Virus record (IMG/VR): IMGVR_UViG_3300020424_000003
Span: 16,676 to 80,675 of that record
DNA: 64,000 bases
Direction: 5' to 3' (one strand)
Source of the DNA: a virus
Shown here: positions 1,856 to 51,672 of the stretch, one piece after another
Position numbering within the stretch: position 1 is the first letter of the stretch
Layout of the letters: each line of letters opens with the position of its first letter
The notes under the pieces: model-generated
What the model was told of the DNA's origin: nothing
The model's input: only the letters and a program-made list of their open reading frames with translations
Database searches by the model: none
Translations under genes and position numbers: made by a program

Positions 1856-3748
1856 TTATTTGTCTTTACTAACTTCTTCAAAATCAGCATCAACTACATT
1901 GTCGTCCTTTGGTTTATCAGACTCTGTGTTTGCTTTTTGCTCTGATTCTTGTTGTTGCTTATAGATTGCTTCACCAAGTTTCATTGCACTTTGAGTCAAT
2001 GTTTCAGTTTTTGTTTTTATATCCTCTACATTTGACCCTTTTAATGCTTCTTTCAAATCATTAATATCAGACTCAACTTTAGTTTTATCTTCAGCTGATA
2101 ACTTATCTCCGTGTTCTTTAAGTTGTTTCTCTACATTATGAACCATTGCATCTGCATTGTTTCTTGTATCGATACCTTCACGTTTTTGTTTGTCAGCCTC
2201 CTTGTTTGCTTCTGCGTCTTTGACCATTTTGTCTATCTCAGACTCAGATAGTCCACCAGATGCTTGTATGGTTATCTTTTGTTCTTTGCCAGTGCCTTTG
2301 TCTTTTGCACTTACATTAACAATACCATTTGCATCAATATCAAATGTCACTTCAATTTGTGGCATTCCTCTTGGTGCTGGTGCGATTCCATCAAGTGTAA
2401 AGTTTCCTAATGGCTTGTTGTCTGCCGCCATTTCCCTTTCACCTTGTACAACACTAATTGTTACCGCTGGTTGATTATCCTCAGCAGTTGAAAACACCTG
2501 ACTTTTCTTTGTAGGAATAGTTGTGTTCTTTTCAATCAGTTTAGTTGCTACACCACCTAGTGTTTCAATACCTAAAGACAAAGGTGTTACATCTAACAAC
2601 AAGACATCTTTGACATCTCCTTGTAGTACTCCACCCTGTATAGCGGCACCTATTGCTACAACTTCATCTGGGTTTACACCTTTGTGAGGTTCCTTACCAA
2701 AGAAGTCTTGTACCAACTGTTGAACTTTAGGCATACGTGTCATACCACCTACTAAAATTACTTCGTCAATACCATTAGCAGATAGTTCTGCATCTTTAAG
2801 TGCTGTCTTACAAGGAACCAACGTTTTTTGAATCAAGTCTTCAACAAGAGATTCAAGTTTTGCTCTTGTCATCTTGATGTTTAAATGTTTAGGTCCACTT
2901 GCATCAGCAGTGATGAATGGTAAACTTATGTCAGTTTGTACTGCTGACGATAGTTCACACTTGGCCTTTTCAGCAGACTCTCTTACACGTTGTAATGCAA
3001 GATTATCTTTTGTTAGGTCAACACCTTGTTCTTTCTTGAACTCATCACAGATATAATTTACAATGGTGTTGTCAAAGTCTTCACCACCTAGTGAAGTGTC
3101 TCCGTTAGTAGACTTAACTTCAAATACACCATCTCCTATTTCAAGAATTGATATATCAAATGTTCCACCACCTAAATCATATACTGCAACTGTGCCTGAC
3201 TTTTTCTTGTCAAGTCCATAAGCAAGAGCGGCCGCAGTTGGTTCGTTTACTATACGTTCAACATCAAGTCCTGCAATCTTACCTGCGTCTTTGGTTGCTT
3301 GTCTTTGTGAATCATTGAAGTATGCTGGTACTGTGATTACTGCTTTCTTTACTTCACTGCCTAAATACTTTTCAGCAGTCTCTTTCATTTTTTGTAAAGT
3401 AAATGCAGATATCTGACTAGGAGAATAATCCTCGTCTTTTGCTTTTACCCAAGCATCTCCATTTGATGATTTAATTATTTTAAAGGGCGAAGTCTTAATA
3501 TCTTTTTGTACAGACTTGTCCTCATATTTTTTTCCTATTAGTCTTTTGACTGCGAAGATTGTGTTTTCTGGATTTGTCACTGCTTGTCTTTTTGCAGGAA
3601 CACCCACTAGCCTTTCATCGCCGAAAGCTACCACTGAAGGTGTTGTTCTTGCACCTTCTGTATTTTCTATTACCTTGGCGCTACCGCCTTCCATTACTGA
3701 TACGCAAGAATTGGTAGTACCTAAGTCAATACCGATTATTTTGCTCAT
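1856..3748 (-). CDS. dnaK: Chaperone DnaK (Hsp70)
   Basis: [28 protein letters not shown]; full length 630 aa. Confidence 0.99.
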
Positions 3749-7270: not shown

Positions 7271-9001
7271 TTAGGTCTGGTCGGAGTCTTCCGGATTGGT
7301 TGTCTGGCGTACTTGCTTGTTGCTTACCTTTGTTATGTAATTGGTTCCGCTCACCGTTTTTTTTTGAGCTTCGTCTATTTGTTTTAATTCTTCGCCATAA
7401 AAAATTCTATTTTTGGTATCAACATACTCTTTATCTTTATCTTTTTCTTTTTGATCTTCTTTTATTGCTTCTTTTTCTGCGGCATCTACCCATTGGTTCC
7501 ATTTGTCAACATCTTTTACTTCGTCTAGTATGTCTTCCTTTTTTTCTTCTTTAGGTTCATAGTTCTTGTTGAATTCTTCATACCCTTCTACTTCAGCTGG
7601 ATCAAATCCATCATTGACTTCTTTTATGATCTTTTCTTCAAGCTCTTCTTTCATATCAAGCTCTTTGTCAACAGTCACAGGCTCTTCGGGTAAAGGTTCA
7701 AGTTCGTCCTGCATCGTTTCACTGAACGACTTTTCTTCACTGTGATCAAGTCCAGGTTCAACTTTGACTTCTGTTGTGTCTGTGGTTACTGCACCCAGTG
7801 AACCTGCCACTGCTACTTCTTTAGTTGGAGTTGGCTCGGGCTCTGGATCGTTAGGTTCGTCTGGATCTGGATCGGACTTTGGGGGCAACTTCCCGCCCTT
7901 GTCCTCTCTTACATATTGAAATGTATATTGTGAAGCAATTAATAATAATACCGCAAGTGGATCAAATACAAAAATAATAATTATTATTACCCATCTTACA
8001 GCCGATTCTAATAATGATTGATTTGCTTGTTCACCATAGATAAATTCAGCAATATATTTAATTGGTCCTACTTCAGCTTCTAACTTACGATACTCTTTTT
8101 CATAACCAAACTTCTCTTCACGTACTTGATCAATTACTAATTGTTCTGCATCAATAAAGTTTTCAAGTTCTGTAACACGAGCATCTATGTCTTCAGTTTT
8201 TTCATTGGCTTGATTACGTAGATCCTGTATTCTATCCTGTATTGCTTTGATATCATTTGCATATTTGGCATCTACGGCCGCAAGTGCTTCATTAAGTTTA
8301 GCATTTATGTTTCTAATTTCTCTTTGTGCCGAACTTGCCACTGACAGTTCGTTTGCCTTTGCTTCTTCTACTGCTTTGTCAAACTTGGCACCGCCACCAA
8401 AGGATCCTTCAAACCTATCCTTGGCCGCTTGTATATCTGCTTCTTTACGTTCTTTTGCTTGTTCAATACGTTTGTTCTGTAATTCTATTTGTTTGTCAAA
8501 GTCAACACGGACATCATCTTTTTCAGCTTTTATAAGTGCATTGATTTTATCTAATTCTTTTTGTTCACGATCAATAAGATTATCTACACGGACATCTTCG
8601 CCTTTCATTAGGCGATTCATTTCATCTGTCCAACGTTCTATTTTACCCTGTGATCTAATTTCCTTGTCATCAAGTGTTTTAATTAAAGCAACTTGTTCTT
8701 GGCTCATAGATGTTTGTTCTATGTGTGCTTTAGATAAGAAACCAAAGATACCCATTGATGTTATAAACATTAACACAATGACTGCTATTGAAAGATAGGT
8801 TTTTAACCACCAGGCGGCTCGTGACCAATGTCTGTGTAACCATACTGCGGTAACAAGTTTCCCTATTTCTAAAGAAACACCCATGATAATGATTGGAATC
8901 ACAGCCGCGGCGAATATAGCCGCCAATCCTGCCACCGAATAGTATATAGCTACCGCACTAATAGTTAATGCAGATAGAAATGTTAATATTCCTAATAACA
9001 T
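7271..9001 (-). CDS. Membrane-anchored coiled-coil protein with acidic tail; a -1 frame extension to 7200 is likely
   Basis: Three N-terminal hydrophobic segments, long coiled coil, one more TM segment, acidic tail; A9 run at 7357-7365. Confidence 0.8.
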   Translation of the reverse strand: MLLGILTFLSALTISAVAIYYSVAGLAAIFAAAVIPIIIMGVSLEIGKLVTAVWLHRHWSRAAWWLKTYLSIAVIVLMFITSMGIFGFLSKAHIEQTSMSQEQVALIKTLDDKEIRSQGKIERWTDEMNRLMKGEDVRVDNLIDREQKELDKINALIKAEKDDVRVDFDKQIELQNKRIEQAKERKEADIQAAKDRFEGSFGGGAKFDKAVEEAKANELSVASSAQREIRNINAKLNEALAAVDAKYANDIKAIQDRIQDLRNQANEKTEDIDARVTELENFIDAEQLVIDQVREEKFGYEKEYRKLEAEVGPIKYIAEFIYGEQANQSLLESAVRWVIIIIIFVFDPLAVLLLIASQYTFQYVREDKGGKLPPKSDPDPDEPNDPEPEPTPTKEVAVAGSLGAVTTDTTEVKVEPGLDHSEEKSFSETMQDELEPLPEEPVTVDKELDMKEELEEKIIKEVNDGFDPAEVEGYEEFNKNYEPKEEKKEDILDEVKDVDKWNQWVDAAEKEAIKEDQKEKDKDKEYVDTKNRIFYGEELKQIDEAQKKTVSGTNYITKVSNKQVRQTTNPEDSDQT

Positions 9002-9044
9002 ACTGCTCCCTCTGTATTCTTTGTATAACATATTTATCTTAATT

Positions 9045-11835: not shown

Positions 11836-11912
11836 TGGCGGGAGTGAAGGGACTCGAACCCTCGGCCTTCCGCGTGACAGGCGGACGCTCTAACCAACTG
11901 AGCTACACCCCC
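11836..11912 (-). tRNA. tRNA-Asp(GTC)
   Basis: Cloverleaf; anticodon loop CTGTCAC; encoded CCA. Confidence 0.95.
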
Positions 11913-11918
11913 ATATGG

Positions 11919-11994
11919 TGGTGGAGGATACAGGAGTCGAACCTGCGACCTCCTGAATGCAAATCAGGCGCTCTCCCAACTGAGCTAATCCCCC
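11919..11994 (-). tRNA. tRNA-Ala(TGC)
   Basis: Cloverleaf; loop TTTGCAT; G3-U70; encoded CCA. Confidence 0.95.
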
Positions 11995-12169
11995 AAAGTC
12001 TTAACCGCAACCGGATATACAAATCATCCAAGGTTGTCCAAATGCTATCTGATGTGCTACGTCTAAAACAATAGCTACACCCATTATCGTTACAAAAGTC
12101 ATCATGTCACTGTTCCTTGTGTTGTGATAAAAACTAGCTTTATTATATAGTCATTTAATGAAGATGTCA

Positions 12170-12470
12170 AGTGCAACTTTTCTGTTGCTAGGTAAGTTGC
12201 CAACCCCGAGCGATTATGCCGCTAGGGCAAAATCCTCATTTACAACGGATTTCTGTTTACCGAAGTTAACAAAAGTCACGTTGTTTAGTGCATTATCGTT
12301 TGCATCTATACGTTTGTTCGCGTTAACCGAGCTTACATCCGGACAGTCTCCTTCAACCTTAACAAGCCAATCGATCCTAATTCCACCCCGTCGGGGGTAT
12401 ATTGAATTGGTGGAGTGGCCGGGAATTGCACCCGGGTCTTGCTCTTGTGACATACGTTGCTATCATCAAT
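12170..12470 (-). ncRNA. ssrA: Circularly permuted two-piece tmRNA; tag (A)ANDNALNNVTFVNFGKQKSVVNEDFALAA
   Basis: T-arm and CCACTCC-A-CCA (12408-12418) precede an 18-nt spacer and GGGGTGG (12383-12389), giving G3-U70; tag frame 12214-12303 ends LAA-stop; outer ends approximate. Confidence 0.9.
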
Positions 12471-12540
12471 TGCTATGTATTTATAGCCTTATTTGTATAG
12501 TATGCACTTAATTGTGATAACTAATGTCAAAGGATTAACA

Positions 12541-15857: not shown

Positions 15858-18203
15858 TTAAATTGCACATGATTCACAAACTTCATCCTCATCTTCAGCC
15901 TTTACTTGACTGTCTGTTAAACCAACTTGTGGTTCAAATGGTTTTTCTTTATAAGCGATCTCAGTTTTGATTTCATCTTCACTAGGATCAGTCTTAAAGT
16001 CATATGTGTTTTGGTAATAAGAAGTTTTCCAACCATACTTATAAGTGGTTAGCATATCTTGTAGCATAACACTCATTGGCACTTCATTGTTTTCGAAGTG
16101 TGTAGGATTGTAACTCCAGTTACCTGAAATTGCCTGATCAAAAAACTTTTGCATCACTGCAACAATTTTTATATAACCCTCATTACTTGGCATATCCCAT
16201 AATAACGTATAGTTATTCTTTAACGTTTGATACTGTGGAACAATCTGCTTAAGAGGCCCTTTTTTTGACTTCTTAATGGACAAGAACCCTCTAGGTGGTT
16301 CGATTCCGTTTGTTGCGTTCGACACAATGGAACTGCTCTCCGAAGGCATCTGTGCGGACAATGTTGAGTGCCGTAGACCGTGAAGTCCAATGCTCTTGCG
16401 AAGATCATCCCAGTCATATTTTAACGTGATCGAACAAACTTCGTCCAGTTCCTTTTTGTATGTATCAATTGGTAATATACCATCACTGTATTTAGTACGA
16501 TCAAAATATTCACACTTGCCTTTTTCCTGTGCTAATTTATTACTTGCTACCAATAGATAGTATTGAAATGCTTCTGTTAGCTCATGCACTTTAGTAAGTG
16601 CTTTTTTATCATTATACTTAACACCATTCTTTGCAAGGTAATGTGCAAGTCCAATATATCCAACACCAAGACTTCTTCTTGCTTTGGTTGAAACTTCTGC
16701 GGCTTTCACAGGATAACGTTGGTAGTCAATAACTTCGTCTAATGCTCTAACTGCCAAGTCACATAAATCTTCTAACTCCTCAAGATCTTTTAATACACCA
16801 ACATTGATTGCAGATAAAATACAAAGTGCTATCTCACCGTCAGGATCATCAATGTGTTGCAATGGTTTAGTTGGCAAAGTAATCTCTTGGCAAAGGTTGC
16901 TCATGTAAACAGGATCTTTGAAAGAGCTGTGTGTGTTTGCATGATCAACATTCATGATATATATTCTTCCTGTTTCTGCACGTTCTTTTATTAATGCAGA
17001 AAACAATTCCATTGCTTTGATCTTCTTTTTCTTAATTGAAGTTTTGCGTTCATATTTTTCATACAGTTCTTGGAACTTTTCTTGATCTGCATAAAATGAA
17101 TCATATAACTCTGGAACATCATGTGGAGAAAATAAAGTTATCTCTTCGTCATTTAAAAGTCTTTCATACATGACTTTGTTTAATTGAATTGAATAATCTA
17201 ATCTTCTTACTCTGTTATCTTCTGTTCCTTTGTTATTCTTTAGCACTAGGATATCTTCTATCTCATAATGCCAAAAAGGAAAGTGTGTTGTTGCATTACC
17301 ACCACGTACTCCATTCTGTGTGCAACATCTTACAGTTGATTCGAATTTTTTAAGAAAAGGAATTACTCCTGTGTGTGCAACCTCACCACCTCTAATTTTA
17401 GAATTGATGGCTCTGATTCTTCCTGCATTGATTCCAATACCTGCTCTCTGTGCCGTGTATCTTCCTATGGCCATATCGCTAGAAAAAATGCTGTCAAGTG
17501 TATCATCTATGTCCACTAATACGCAAGAAGCAAATTGTCTCAACGGTGTTCTCACACCTGCCATAATGGGAGTAGGAATATTAATTTTAAATAATGATGT
17601 TGCGTCATAGTATCTTTTTACTATAGACATTCTTTTATCTTTAGGATAATCTGCAAATAGTGTTGCCGCAATCATCATGTACATCACTTGTGGTGATTCA
17701 TGTATGTCACCTGTGCTTCTATCTTGCACAAGATATTTGTCAACAATTTGTCTCAGTCCTGCATAGGTAAAATTTTCATCTCTACTATGTTTGATCCAAC
17801 TATTCAACTTCTTTAATTCTGTTTGTGTATATTTTTCTTTGATAGCAGGGTCGTATACGCCTCTATCAATATTTCTATCTATTATTTTTGTAAGCGGAAT
17901 AGGAGTGTATTGTCCAAACGTTTCTTTGTAAATCGGATATAACAACAATCGTGCCGCAACATATTGATAATTGGGGTTATCCAATGTGATCAAATCGTTA
18001 GATGATTTAATTAATATTTCTTGTATTTCTTCTGTTGACATTCCATCATAAAATTGTATGTTCGCAGTCATCTCAACTTGCGAAGCACTAACATTTGATA
18101 GTCCTTCACAGGCTTCTTCTACTACAAAATGAATTTTATTGATGTCTAATGGTACACTTGTTCCGTCACGTTTAATGATATGAATTCCGACGCCGTTTGA
18201 CAT
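15858..18203 (-). CDS. nrdA: Ribonucleotide reductase class Ia alpha subunit
   Basis: ATP cone, QFASCVL, SNLCQEI, TSYY, C-terminal CESC. Confidence 0.98.
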   Translation of the reverse strand: MSNGVGIHIIKRDGTSVPLDINKIHFVVEEACEGLSNVSASQVEMTANIQFYDGMSTEEIQEILIKSSNDLITLDNPNYQYVAARLLLYPIYKETFGQYTPIPLTKIIDRNIDRGVYDPAIKEKYTQTELKKLNSWIKHSRDENFTYAGLRQIVDKYLVQDRSTGDIHESPQVMYMMIAATLFADYPKDKRMSIVKRYYDATSLFKINIPTPIMAGVRTPLRQFASCVLVDIDDTLDSIFSSDMAIGRYTAQRAGIGINAGRIRAINSKIRGGEVAHTGVIPFLKKFESTVRCCTQNGVRGGNATTHFPFWHYEIEDILVLKNNKGTEDNRVRRLDYSIQLNKVMYERLLNDEEITLFSPHDVPELYDSFYADQEKFQELYEKYERKTSIKKKKIKAMELFSALIKERAETGRIYIMNVDHANTHSSFKDPVYMSNLCQEITLPTKPLQHIDDPDGEIALCILSAINVGVLKDLEELEDLCDLAVRALDEVIDYQRYPVKAAEVSTKARRSLGVGYIGLAHYLAKNGVKYNDKKALTKVHELTEAFQYYLLVASNKLAQEKGKCEYFDRTKYSDGILPIDTYKKELDEVCSITLKYDWDDLRKSIGLHGLRHSTLSAQMPSESSSIVSNATNGIEPPRGFLSIKKSKKGPLKQIVPQYQTLKNNYTLLWDMPSNEGYIKIVAVMQKFFDQAISGNWSYNPTHFENNEVPMSVMLQDMLTTYKYGWKTSYYQNTYDFKTDPSEDEIKTEIAYKEKPFEPQVGLTDSQVKAEDEDEVCESCAI

Positions 18204-24045: not shown

Positions 24046-24402
24046 TTAAAGAGCGGCGTTGGTTGCTCTTTTTGCCATTTGGTCGACTGTTGCATCTGCT
24101 GGATCAGTAGTTTTAGTCATTGGCTCTTCACTGTCAGCTTCTTGTTTTGTGGTTAATGTTACACCTTTGTCATCAAAATTTTTGACAAGTTTTTGAACGT
24201 CTGGATTGGCATCATATATTTGTTTGAAGCCATCATAGTCAAACTGTTGTAGATCCATGTTGGTCATTATTTGATTGAGTGCTTCAAAAGACAGATAGGC
24301 AGACTGACCTTTACTGTCAGCACTACCTATCATATTTCTAAATGTTGAGATTAACGCCTCTTTTGAATTTGACGCTTCAGTTACTTTGGTTCTTGTGGAG
24401 CC
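24046..24402 (-). CDS. Downstream frame reached by a -1 shift from the 377-aa gene
   Basis: Frame is open from the A9 run (24403-24411) through the track ORF 24046-24333, whose ATG has no evident SD. Confidence 0.7.
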   Translation of the reverse strand, partial: GSTRTKVTEASNSKEALISTFRNMIGSADSKGQSAYLSFEALNQIMTNMDLQQFDYDGFKQIYDANPDVQKLVKNFDDKGVTLTTKQEADSEEPMTKTTDPADATVDQMAKRATNAAL

Positions 24403-25514
24403 TTTTTTTTTGAGTCAGTTAATAACTGACCTAATCTTCTGCTACGTTCAACGGATTCTCGTTTTTCCCTGTCCGCTACCTCTTCGCCTCCTGTTGCTGG
24501 TTCACTTGCTCCGAACTCATCATCAGTTGCTACTGGTTCAGCACCGGCCTCCTGGTCAACTGTTGGTTCCATTGGTTCCTCAGCTGGAGCTTCTGGATCT
24601 GCACCCATTGGCTCTGGAGCACCTTCGCCTGTTACGATGGCTACGCCACCTGTTAGTGCTTCTCTTGTAGTTTCAAAAACTGTATATAAATTTTCAAGTG
24701 CTGGTTTTACAGTATTGATGAACTCTTCGCTTTTCTCTGATCCTAATTCATCTCTGATCTTATCGCCTAGTTCAAGCATTGATTCAGTTTGCATTTCTGC
24801 TGTATCTTCCATCCAGCCTGTGAGTCTATCCACCATGTCCTTTGCGGCCATAACTAATGTTGCTTTATCTTCTTCACCCTCTATTAATTTAATGTAGCCT
24901 TCTAATGCTTCATTCATTTCTTTCTTGCAATCTTTGATTAACTGCTTTAATTTGTCTTTGTCTGCATCTGGGTGCATTTTCAACATTTCTGCTTCGGACA
25001 TTCCATCCTTGCACATTTTCATTACGTGTGCTTTTGATGGCATTTTACCTTTTTCTTCTTTTTCTTTGATGTCTTTAGCTTCGTCGTCTTTACCTTGCTT
25101 TTTAAGTATTGCTTTCTTTAAGCCTGCTGGTAATTTTTCTTGACCTTTTGTTAAATCTTCATCAGCTACATCTTCTTTTTTAGCTTCTTTATCCTTAACA
25201 GCCTTTTTCATTGGCTCTTTCTTATCGCCATCACCATCTATATCGATATAGTCTGGTTTAGCTTTAGCTCTTTCTTCAATTTCTCTGTTGATTACGTCTA
25301 GGAACATTTTGCCTTTTTGGTAGGCATCGCTTGTATGAACTGTTTCGAAACTTTCGTTGGTTTCAACTTGACTTAATTGTGTTCTAAGTTTGTTACGAGC
25401 ATCTTCAAGTTGCTCATTAGTGAAATCGTTCAAACGAAGTTTGGTTCCGAATGTTTTTGCCAATGACTCATTTAAGTCTTCAGCTGATGTTATTTTAAGT
25501 TCATTTAGTTTCAT
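24381..25514 (-). CDS. Acidic prohead-core/scaffold-like late protein
   Basis: MKLNEL start, LNE/IKE/LIE motifs, highly charged, upstream TAAATA. Confidence 0.65.
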   Translation of the reverse strand: MKLNELKITSAEDLNESLAKTFGTKLRLNDFTNEQLEDARNKLRTQLSQVETNESFETVHTSDAYQKGKMFLDVINREIEERAKAKPDYIDIDGDGDKKEPMKKAVKDKEAKKEDVADEDLTKGQEKLPAGLKKAILKKQGKDDEAKDIKEKEEKGKMPSKAHVMKMCKDGMSEAEMLKMHPDADKDKLKQLIKDCKKEMNEALEGYIKLIEGEEDKATLVMAAKDMVDRLTGWMEDTAEMQTESMLELGDKIRDELGSEKSEEFINTVKPALENLYTVFETTREALTGGVAIVTGEGAPEPMGADPEAPAEEPMEPTVDQEAGAEPVATDDEFGASEPATGGEEVADREKRESVERSRRLGQLLTDSKKKAPQEPK

Positions 25515-35583: not shown

Positions 35584-35844
35584 ATGCTTATTATTAAACG
35601 TTTATTAAACTGGTGTGAGATTGTGGGCTATGCGAAAGCATCAGCAGAACTATCACGTCAGGGCTTTCATGCTGAAGCAAAGGCTTTGATGCTGGAGAAG
35701 ACAAAACTTCAAGGCAGAAAAGAAAGAGCTCTAGTAAGATTAGAAGCCAAAAAAAAATTTAAAGCAGGGTATGATCCTGCCAATCACTACATGAGAGGCA
35801 AGTCCGTTGCAACCTGGAGTGGCAAGAAAGGTATGGTAGCTTAA
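35584..35844 (+). CDS. Small hypothetical protein
   Basis: GYAKASAELSRQGF; SD present. Confidence 0.65.
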   Translation: MLIIKRLLNWCEIVGYAKASAELSRQGFHAEAKALMLEKTKLQGRKERALVRLEAKKKFKAGYDPANHYMRGKSVATWSGKKGMVA

Positions 35845-51399: not shown

Positions 51400-51486
51400 G
51401 ACCGCGTGGCGGAATAGGTAGACGCAACGGACTTAAAATCCGTTATCGATATCGGTGTGTGGGTTCGAGTCCCTCCGCGGTCACCA
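51400..51486 (+). tRNA. tRNA-Leu(TAA)
   Basis: Loop CTTAAAA; long variable arm; CCA. Confidence 0.93.
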
Positions 51487-51499
51487 CCCTTTGAATAAT

Positions 51500-51576
51500 C
51501 TGCCCGTAGCTCAGCTGGACAGAGCAATGGCCTTCTAAGCCATGGGTCGAGGGTTCGAATCCTTCCGGGCAGGCCA
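51500..51576 (+). tRNA. tRNA-Arg(TCT)
   Basis: Loop CTTCTAA; CCA. Confidence 0.95.
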
Positions 51577-51578
51577 AA

Positions 51579-51672
51579 GGTCCTATAGTTTAACGGTAAA
51601 ACACCCGATTTATATTCGGCATAGTCTCCAGATTAGAGAGCGATCCTGGTTCGAATCCAGGTGGGACCACCA
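51579..51672 (+). tRNA. tRNA-Ile(TAT) with an atypical 24-nt variable arm
   Basis: GGTCCTA/TGGGACC acceptor stem; loop TTTATAT; CCTGG-TTCGAAT-CCAGG T-arm; ACCA end. Confidence 0.8.

Follow-up and report, generated by a model that had tools for sequence, protein, structure and literature searches.

A conserved nine-adenine run between a leader-bearing virion-type gene and a start-less reading frame points to programmed -1 recoding in uncultured marine jumbo phages

How does a reading frame that appears to have no start of its own come to be translated? The question is raised by a locus in IMG/VR virus record IMGVR_UViG_3300020424_000003, of which positions 16,676 to 80,675 were analysed (64,000 nucleotides, referred to here as the window and numbered from its first letter). 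On the minus strand of the window, a gene for a protein of 377 amino acids (aa), gene A, carries a run of nine adenines (A9) close to its stop codon, and the -1 frame at this run leads into an open reading frame (ORF) of 95 aa, ORF B. A first interpretation made without database searches, called here the sequence-only reading, had proposed that recoding at the run fuses the A protein to the product of the next ORF, and comparative evidence from 57 of 63 distinct loci now strongly supports this. Judged from these comparisons, it is very likely that programmed -1 recoding at A9 is real. Most expression would yield the 377-aa A protein, while a minority would continue in the -1 frame to give an A-B fusion of 489 aa, which would be the only route to B in the window's lineage; the two products would presumably be made in a fixed isoform ratio, as had also been suggested.

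The elements of the site lie as follows.

24381..25514, minus strand: gene A, 377 aa, the 0-frame product (from the ORF list)
25479..25514, minus strand: leader MKLNELKITSAE at the N-terminus of A (from a motif scan; kept in A homologues)
24414..24430, minus strand: hairpin GTCAGT-TATTA-ACTGAC, ending 2 nt before the run, in the window's clade only
24415..24417, minus strand: TGA stop of the -1 frame, the 5' limit of the interval in which a shift can occur (from sequence)
24403..24411, minus strand: A9 run (T9 on the plus strand), the putative recoding site (from sequence and comparison)
24402..24408, minus strand: heptamer A_AAA_AAG in 0-frame phase (from sequence)
24381..24383, minus strand: TAA stop of the 0 frame, six codons past AAG, the 3' limit of the same interval
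24046..24411, minus strand: open -1 frame, 121 codons and a stop, the transframe C-terminal part of the predicted 489-aa fusion
24376..24384, minus strand: VTE of the -1 frame, of the [VLI]xE type and a candidate for cleavage by a prohead protease
24046..24333, minus strand: ORF B, 95 aa (from the ORF list; its ATG is not conserved)

The 0-frame end of A reads CTG ACT GAC TCA AAA AAA AAG GCT CCA CAA GAA CCA AAG TAA, so that TCA AAA AAA AAG stands six codons before the stop and the run occupies 24403-24411, exactly as the sequence-only reading had placed them. In the -1 frame, the sequence after the TGA is CTC AAA AAA AAA GGC..., read as KKKGSTRTKVTEASNSKEALISTFRN-MIGSAD... up to the stop TAA at 24046-24048, and the predicted fusion length of 489 aa (371 + 23 + 95) agrees with the earlier estimate of a -1 frame running on into the 95-aa ORF. 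The two frames can be joined only within an interval of about 34 nt, which contains the A9 run, and the heptamer A_AAA_AAG sits between the -1-frame TGA and the 0-frame TAA in 0-frame phase. The claim that the ATG of B has no evident Shine-Dalgarno (SD) sequence also held, as a GAGG about 24 nt upstream is too far away to serve and nothing SD-like lies closer. When the window was shuffled 100 times, however, 27 of the shuffled sequences contained the motif C-A9-G, which is not significant by itself in one sequence; the significance of the site comes from its conservation across 57 of 63 distinct homologous loci, not from the motif.

For that comparison, 80 loci were taken from IMG/VR, 63 of them distinct over the junction. 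The run stands at the matching place in 57 of the 63 (A9 in 51, A10 in four and A8 in two), and the run, its codon phase and the -1 relation persist down to about 41% identity of A, most of the loci without a run being more divergent. It begins at the third base of the codon before AAA AAA AAG in 53 of the 57. In every one of the 57 run-bearing loci, no more than 7 codons remain in the 0 frame and no more than 14 in the +1 frame, whereas the -1 frame stays open for 109-159 codons. Run, phase and long -1 frame are thus kept together in 57 of 63 loci, which supports recoding and is the outcome of the check proposed earlier, an alignment of homologous loci for a conserved A run and -1 phase.

The peptide encoded in the -1 frame is conserved from the run onwards, as KKK-[VLI]xE...LVQVLRTVIGSAD, with the block after [VLI]xE reading ...KLVQVLRTVIGSAD... 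before the B core begins. The motif [LIV]xE is present in 57/57 run-bearing loci, where it starts within about 8 residues of the run and lies entirely within 11. The methionine at which B is annotated in the window falls inside the conserved block, at a position where other lineages have L, Q, T, V or I, and in 50 of the 57 loci the stretch from the -1 stop upstream to the conserved core contains no ATG, GTG or TTG; because the Met is not conserved and the overlap is start-free in these 50 loci, B is taken to lack a start of its own. At other places in the A genes, the tripeptide KKK is never coded AAA AAA AAA (0 of 81 instances, with about 29 expected given that 71% of Lys codons are AAA), and by this measure of codon choice the A9 run is selected at the junction and avoided in the rest of the gene. 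The A10 loci read TCA AAA AAA AAA TAA, with ATA AGT GAG (I S E) in the -1 frame where A9 loci have GTA ACC GAA (V T E), a pattern that indicates an origin by G-to-A substitution with the frame relation unchanged. Additional runs were seen in a few loci: five (L064, L066, L068, L073 and L080) have an extra TTC/CTC-A9-G in the phase of the main site, 61-67 nt before the A stop, coding SKKK[LI]AE in the 0 frame and meeting a -1-frame stop two or three codons on, and two (L023 and L025) have two A9 runs each, about 30 nt apart.

What has become of B where the run is missing? An independent downstream gene with no A run had been named as an observation that would speak against fusion, and such an arrangement is indeed found in six of the 63 loci, the other 57 keeping the run. 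In these six, however, B has acquired a leader of its own, which supports the fusion reading instead of refuting it. Three of them (L031, L040 and L059) carry B as a separate gene just past the A stop, starting MKVFELYE, MKIFELYE or MRVSEILKE. The other three (L058, L075 and L076), on a deep branch, carry a probable distant homologue of B (hhalign E 7.5e-5, probability 62%, colinear) that starts MRL[LF]EVD, MRLFEVD among them, from an ATGA overlap with the A stop. The leader of stand-alone B is of the type M[KR][LIV]xE[LFV], the same kind as that of A (MKLNELKITSAE in the window, MNIREISKP... in most homologues). A profile search with the B alignment returned 653 clusters at 50% identity; among the 150 best representatives of the B family, 51 have a leader-type start, and most of the others are truncated calls from an internal Met, as gene callers give for a frame without a start. 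In other phages, the leader and the B domain were also seen at the N-terminus of much longer proteins (P0122, 463 aa; P0131, 771 aa; P0123, 261 aa).

A third arrangement is shown by cluster P0259, a 517-aa protein in which A and B are fused in frame with the junction ...LLCSKKK-ISE-D.... This lineage (P0259 and P0271-P0276), available as proteins only and absent from the viral and JGI metagenome contigs searched, has seven members that differ in sequence, on at least 12 contigs (ENA, Logan) of up to 109 kb. By sequence, its junction SKKK-ISE corresponds exactly to the transframe product predicted for A10-type loci, and the lineage is for this reason counted in support of recoding. Seven loci read A9-GTGA, with a GTG overlapping the stop. 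In a quick, unrooted maximum-likelihood (ML) tree of A, one large clade consists mostly of run-bearing rows, L059 and L031+L040 fall within a well-supported subclade of such rows, and L058, L075 and L076 stand on a long separate branch. The simplest history suggested by these sequences would begin with a coupled gene pair, in which the start of B was lost and the run gained, followed by a return to a separate gene once or twice and by in-frame fusion at least once. The family thus appears to display side by side coupled separate genes, a recoded fusion and an in-frame fusion.

By what molecular step would the -1 frame be entered? Our preferred answer is that slippage of RNA polymerase on the nine-A tract is the main route, to which the sequence comparisons lead us to assign a probability of about 0.5. 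Slippage would add one A to part of the transcripts, and the A10 mRNA would then be read normally into ...SKKK-GSTRTKVTE.... The commonest run length is exactly nine, which exceeds the need of the heptamer by two A's, and this length persists in L065, where GGA stands before the run, and in L072, where TCG does and the phase is shifted; both observations are counted in favour of slippage. Nine is also the length at which selection against slippage becomes visible in many bacterial genomes, and A9 is the slippage site of Thermus dnaX (PMC1088944). As in the present case, the Thermus thermophilus dnaX and Shigella mxiE genes have nine A/T within the coding region, where bases added to the mRNA give rise to a second product, and in mxiE a longer protein results from two ORFs brought together by slippage, as proposed here (PMC1088944). 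Those are cellular genes, however, and the slipped product of Thermus dnaX is shorter, whereas here slippage is proposed from sequence for a phage virion-type gene and the product would be longer.

The same fusion might instead be made mainly by -1 ribosomal frameshifting, in which the tRNA-Lys in the P and A sites would re-pair from A_AAA_AAG to AAA AAA on an unaltered mRNA. The two routes are not exclusive, as tRNA-Lys slippage on A_AAA_AAG would add to the same product, and we regard frameshifting as a serious contender with odds appreciably below even for being the main route. Several observations weigh against polymerase slippage, or fit the ribosome at least as well. In 51 of the 57 run-bearing loci A_AAA_AAG is correctly phased, the remaining ones having A_AAA_AAA, and both A8 loci retain the heptamer. 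The base after the run is G in 53 of 57, and a 0-frame stop directly follows AAG or AAA in 30 of 57, which in ribosomal shifting would help in many lineages. Contigs from three metatranscriptome (RNA) runs show A9 only; as contigs drop minority variants, transcripts with an added A are neither seen nor excluded by them. In the seven A9-GTGA loci, moreover, the GTG could also start B.

The A tracts at the dnaX, IS3 and IS911 frameshift sites are six or seven long, in comparison with nine here. A_AAA_AAG is the most shift-prone heptamer in E. coli, where it serves as the dnaX and IS3 site (PMC5009743; PMC4066793). E. coli dnaX and the IS3/IS911 orfAB pair share with our locus the identical heptamer in the same phase, and the IS elements likewise fuse two overlapping ORFs (PMC5009743). 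In those systems, however, the shift site is flanked by an SD-like element upstream and by a stem-loop or pseudoknot downstream, neither of which is conserved here. Over the 60 nt 3' of the run, the mean z was -0.5 relative to the coding background, with 14% of loci below -1.5; in the window's own clade the alifold consensus (-1.9 kcal/mol) contained no downstream helix, and there was no strong upstream SD-like element. A stimulator is usual at -1 frameshift sites but not obligatory. A 9-bp hairpin present in some members of the clade is likewise not conserved. The hairpin upstream of the run (24414-24430), whose role is doubtful, was set aside, as it is clade-specific and shows no convincing covariation (1/6 pairs, with a single both-sides change). 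A terminator formed by a stem and T9 on the plus strand (24388-24411) was also rejected, the stem being weak, the flank unconserved and the genes all on the other strand. Ribosomal frameshifting further leaves aside why the conserved length is nine and not the six A's that A_AAA_AAG contains, a length that is restored when phase or preceding codon changes, and a run of A9 is expected to make bacterial RNA polymerase slip regardless (PMC1088944). Polymerase slippage was weighted above the ribosomal shift because of this last expectation.

A second A9 in the window also bears on the mechanism. It is again preceded by CTC, lies at 7357-7365 (minus strand) within a 586-aa ORF (7271-9031), 27 codons before its stop, and is kept in five of seven related loci (58-83% identity) in another codon phase and with C or G as the next base. 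Its -1 frame runs for 46-57 codons and carries a conserved tail Y[VIK]QN.EQ...S.[WF] past the 0-frame stop. From these features, the run is probably a second recoding site; it has no AAG codon, which argues against a ribosomal shift, and since it is conserved with a differing phase and 3' base it was counted for polymerase slippage. A third A9 was observed at 35749-35757 on the plus strand, in an 86-aa ORF (35584-35844). It codes for E A K K K F K and stands 29 codons short of the stop; a -1 shift there would meet a stop after a single codon, a +1 shift after about 14. The window has three A9 runs, each of them on the sense strand and no more than 30 codons from the end of its ORF.

Could B instead be translated alone, by reinitiation or translational coupling at the A stop, with the A-rich tract as an unstructured leader and no fusion at all? 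The seven A9-GTGA loci would then give a leader-like MRINEVD..., and gene callers did choose the GTG (P0121); the deep clade without a run has its ATGA overlap in the same -1 phase. In 50 of the 57 run-bearing loci, however, the region is start-free, the codon after the run being GTA, GGN, GTC, GAC, ATA or AGA, and the window is likewise start-free ahead of a non-conserved ATG that has no SD. The in-frame lineage shows that a fused protein is viable, and independent translation would leave unexplained a run of 8-10 A's that is exactly nine in 51 of 57 loci. This alternative is accordingly considered unlikely.

The A9 run itself is not a homopolymer sequencing error. It is spanned without an indel by contigs of one independent DNA run and of the three RNA runs, the latter covering both A and B, which is not proof of a single transcript; the A10 that the sequence-only reading had raised as a possible error was not seen in any contig spanning the run. 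That there is no programmed event, and that the junction stems from an error in assembly or in the homopolymer, from a pseudogene in decay or from phase variation of the A tract in the DNA, is very improbable and already largely refuted: homopolymers are error-prone and mutable, the motif arises in the shuffles mentioned above and one lineage is in frame, but the arrangement recurs in 57 distinct loci from many samples, A10 arose by substitution with the frames kept, the A and B parts are both conserved as protein, and B was in frame with A in none of the 120 closest A homologues and in no hit of a search of longer proteins with the -1 ORF.

What would be gained by attaching B to A? In the A protein, an N-terminal leader is followed by a charged middle part of variable sequence and by a C-terminal half that is helical and conserved; more than 5000 homologues were found in marine metagenomes. 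It matches PHROG 14154, 'virion structural protein', at E 6e-11 (a weak match), while Pfam has no family for A or B and PDB sequence searches gave nothing meaningful. The B product has a small alpha/beta core (AlphaFold core pLDDT ~85) and, C-terminally, a conserved helix with V..MAKRAT; in the PDB, Foldseek found weak winged-helix matches only (E >= 0.1), BFVD matches were to uncharacterised phage proteins only and those in the protein atlas to viral hypothetical proteins only. The leader, M[KRN][LI]xE[LIF], is present on seven ORFs (A included) between 24381 and 31005, and of the nine ORFs that match a motif scan among the 154 of the window, seven fall in this cluster. Under the looser pattern M[KRQL]..[ED][FLIVM], the seven ORFs on the minus strand begin MKLNELK, MKLNELV, MRANEFI, MLIKEIM, MLVREIY, MQLDFIEE and MKFEEFK, and include two small Arg/Lys-rich proteins and a DUF6267 protein with a KWDG motif. 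By sequence, the cluster looks like a set of capsid-targeted internal proteins.

The shared leader resembles, by motif only, the capsid targeting sequence (CTS) of phage T4. In the T4 internal proteins (IPs) a short leader with many E and aliphatic residues stands at the N-terminus, much as here, and cleavage follows the motif L/I-x-E, that of the T4 prohead protease gp21 (PMC9026906). The [VLI]xE at the A-B junction matches this specificity. Fusing a protein to IPIII or to its CTS carries the fused protein into the T4 head (PMC9026906). Since B has a leader when it is separate and a protease-type motif when it is fused, it may be proposed that B is carried in on A and cut free: the fusion would bring B into the prohead on leader-bearing A, and a prohead protease would then release it at the [VLI]xE just past the junction. 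There is no sequence homology between the T4 IPs and A or B, and the T4 cargo fusions were engineered, not recoded.

The suggestion that B rides into the head on A must be set against several negative results. In contrast to T4, neither PF03420 (T4-type prohead protease, gp21) nor PF07068 (gp23) was found in the five genome fragments available, which are each 21-41% complete, the control genomes also giving no match for PF03420. For the T4-like late promoter TATAAATA, 4 copies were seen in the window against 4.75 expected, which is no enrichment. Because the T4-type protease and capsid genes were not found in these partial genomes, the head assignment is weak, and the identification of A as a scaffold-like head-core protein, proposed in the sequence-only reading, is weakly suggested by the PHROG match and the T4-CTS-like leader. 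The full proposal is held tentatively, at somewhat less than even odds: the A9 slippage tract would replace the start and leader of B, possibly a winged-helix internal protein, which would enter the capsid only as a minority fusion and be released at KKK-[VLI]xE, making the pair a phage counterpart of Gag-Pol, with A9 as a general recoding device of this globally abundant family. In retroviral and totiviral Gag-Pol, a minority frameshift fusion to an assembly protein likewise carries a cargo into the particle and a viral protease releases it (PMC5009743). There, RNA viruses infect eukaryotes and the cargo is an enzyme; the resemblance here is functional only, packaging and cleavage being predicted.

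How does the locus compare with recoding in other phages? In T7 10A/10B, T3, Lactobacillus phage A2, Listeria phages A118, A500 and PSA and the tail chaperone G/GT pair, a conserved recoding site lies near the 3' end of a structural gene and leads to a longer isoform made in minor amount, as it would here (PMC5009743; PMC5221750). Those cases extend a major capsid, tail tube or tail chaperone protein, whereas here the extended protein is a charged, leader-bearing carrier and the extension is a domain found as an independent gene in sister lineages. The G/GT pair lies between the tail tube and tape measure genes, and the A/B neighbourhood is not a tail module, as no tail tube or tape measure gene was found near the pair, in agreement with the earlier suggestion of a context unlike the tail-chaperone shift. 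The recoding device itself is already known. For its context, a leader-bearing phage protein with an extension that is an independent gene elsewhere, in abundant uncultured jumbo phages, the literature searched held no record.

In what kind of genome does this occur? The host record of the window is 80.7 kb long with a CheckV completeness of 22%, and related fragments are 21-41% complete, from which a genome of about 360 kb is implied. The window codes for DnaK, ribonucleotide reductase, several 2OG-Fe(II) oxygenases and a SleB-type cell wall hydrolase, together with seven tRNAs and a permuted tmRNA, and this gene content and genome size point to an uncultured marine jumbo phage. The DnaK/Hsp70 homologue is full-length (1856-3748, minus strand) and 65% identical to bacterial DnaK. 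ARAGORN placed the tmRNA at 12123-12504 (minus strand), with the tag ANDNALNNVTFVNFGKQKSVVNEDFALAA, and the seven tRNAs at 11836-11994, 32060, 45505 and 51400-51672, with no tRNA-Lys among them. All genes around the A/B site are on the minus strand, its neighbours including a 2OG-Fe(II) oxygenase, small basic leader-bearing proteins and the DUF6267 protein. As A, the -1 ORF and 12 kb of the DNA gave no tblastn match among 50,697 phage records, the locus is carried by no cultured relative. The 'moraphage' jumbo phages (PMC12619734) were considered as a match and set aside, as they are a different and mainly freshwater lineage, and the paper is silent on frameshifting.

The best-documented cases of programmed recoding in phages are tail chaperones and decorations of capsid or tail; here its deep conservation would lie in another context, in a family of phages that only metagenomes have revealed and that is represented by the thousands of A homologues and hundreds of B-family clusters described above. 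Gene callers split or truncate the second ORF, and many database entries for B begin at an internal Met, so that the annotation of these abundant phages is systematically wrong at the A/B locus. The separate leader-bearing gene, the A9-GTGA form and the in-frame fusion together offer an unusually clear view of how a start and leader may be exchanged for a slippage site, and the arrangements of the sister lineages provide ready-made experimental controls. If polymerase slippage is indeed the route, a phage structural gene would join the short list of cases of programmed transcriptional slippage.

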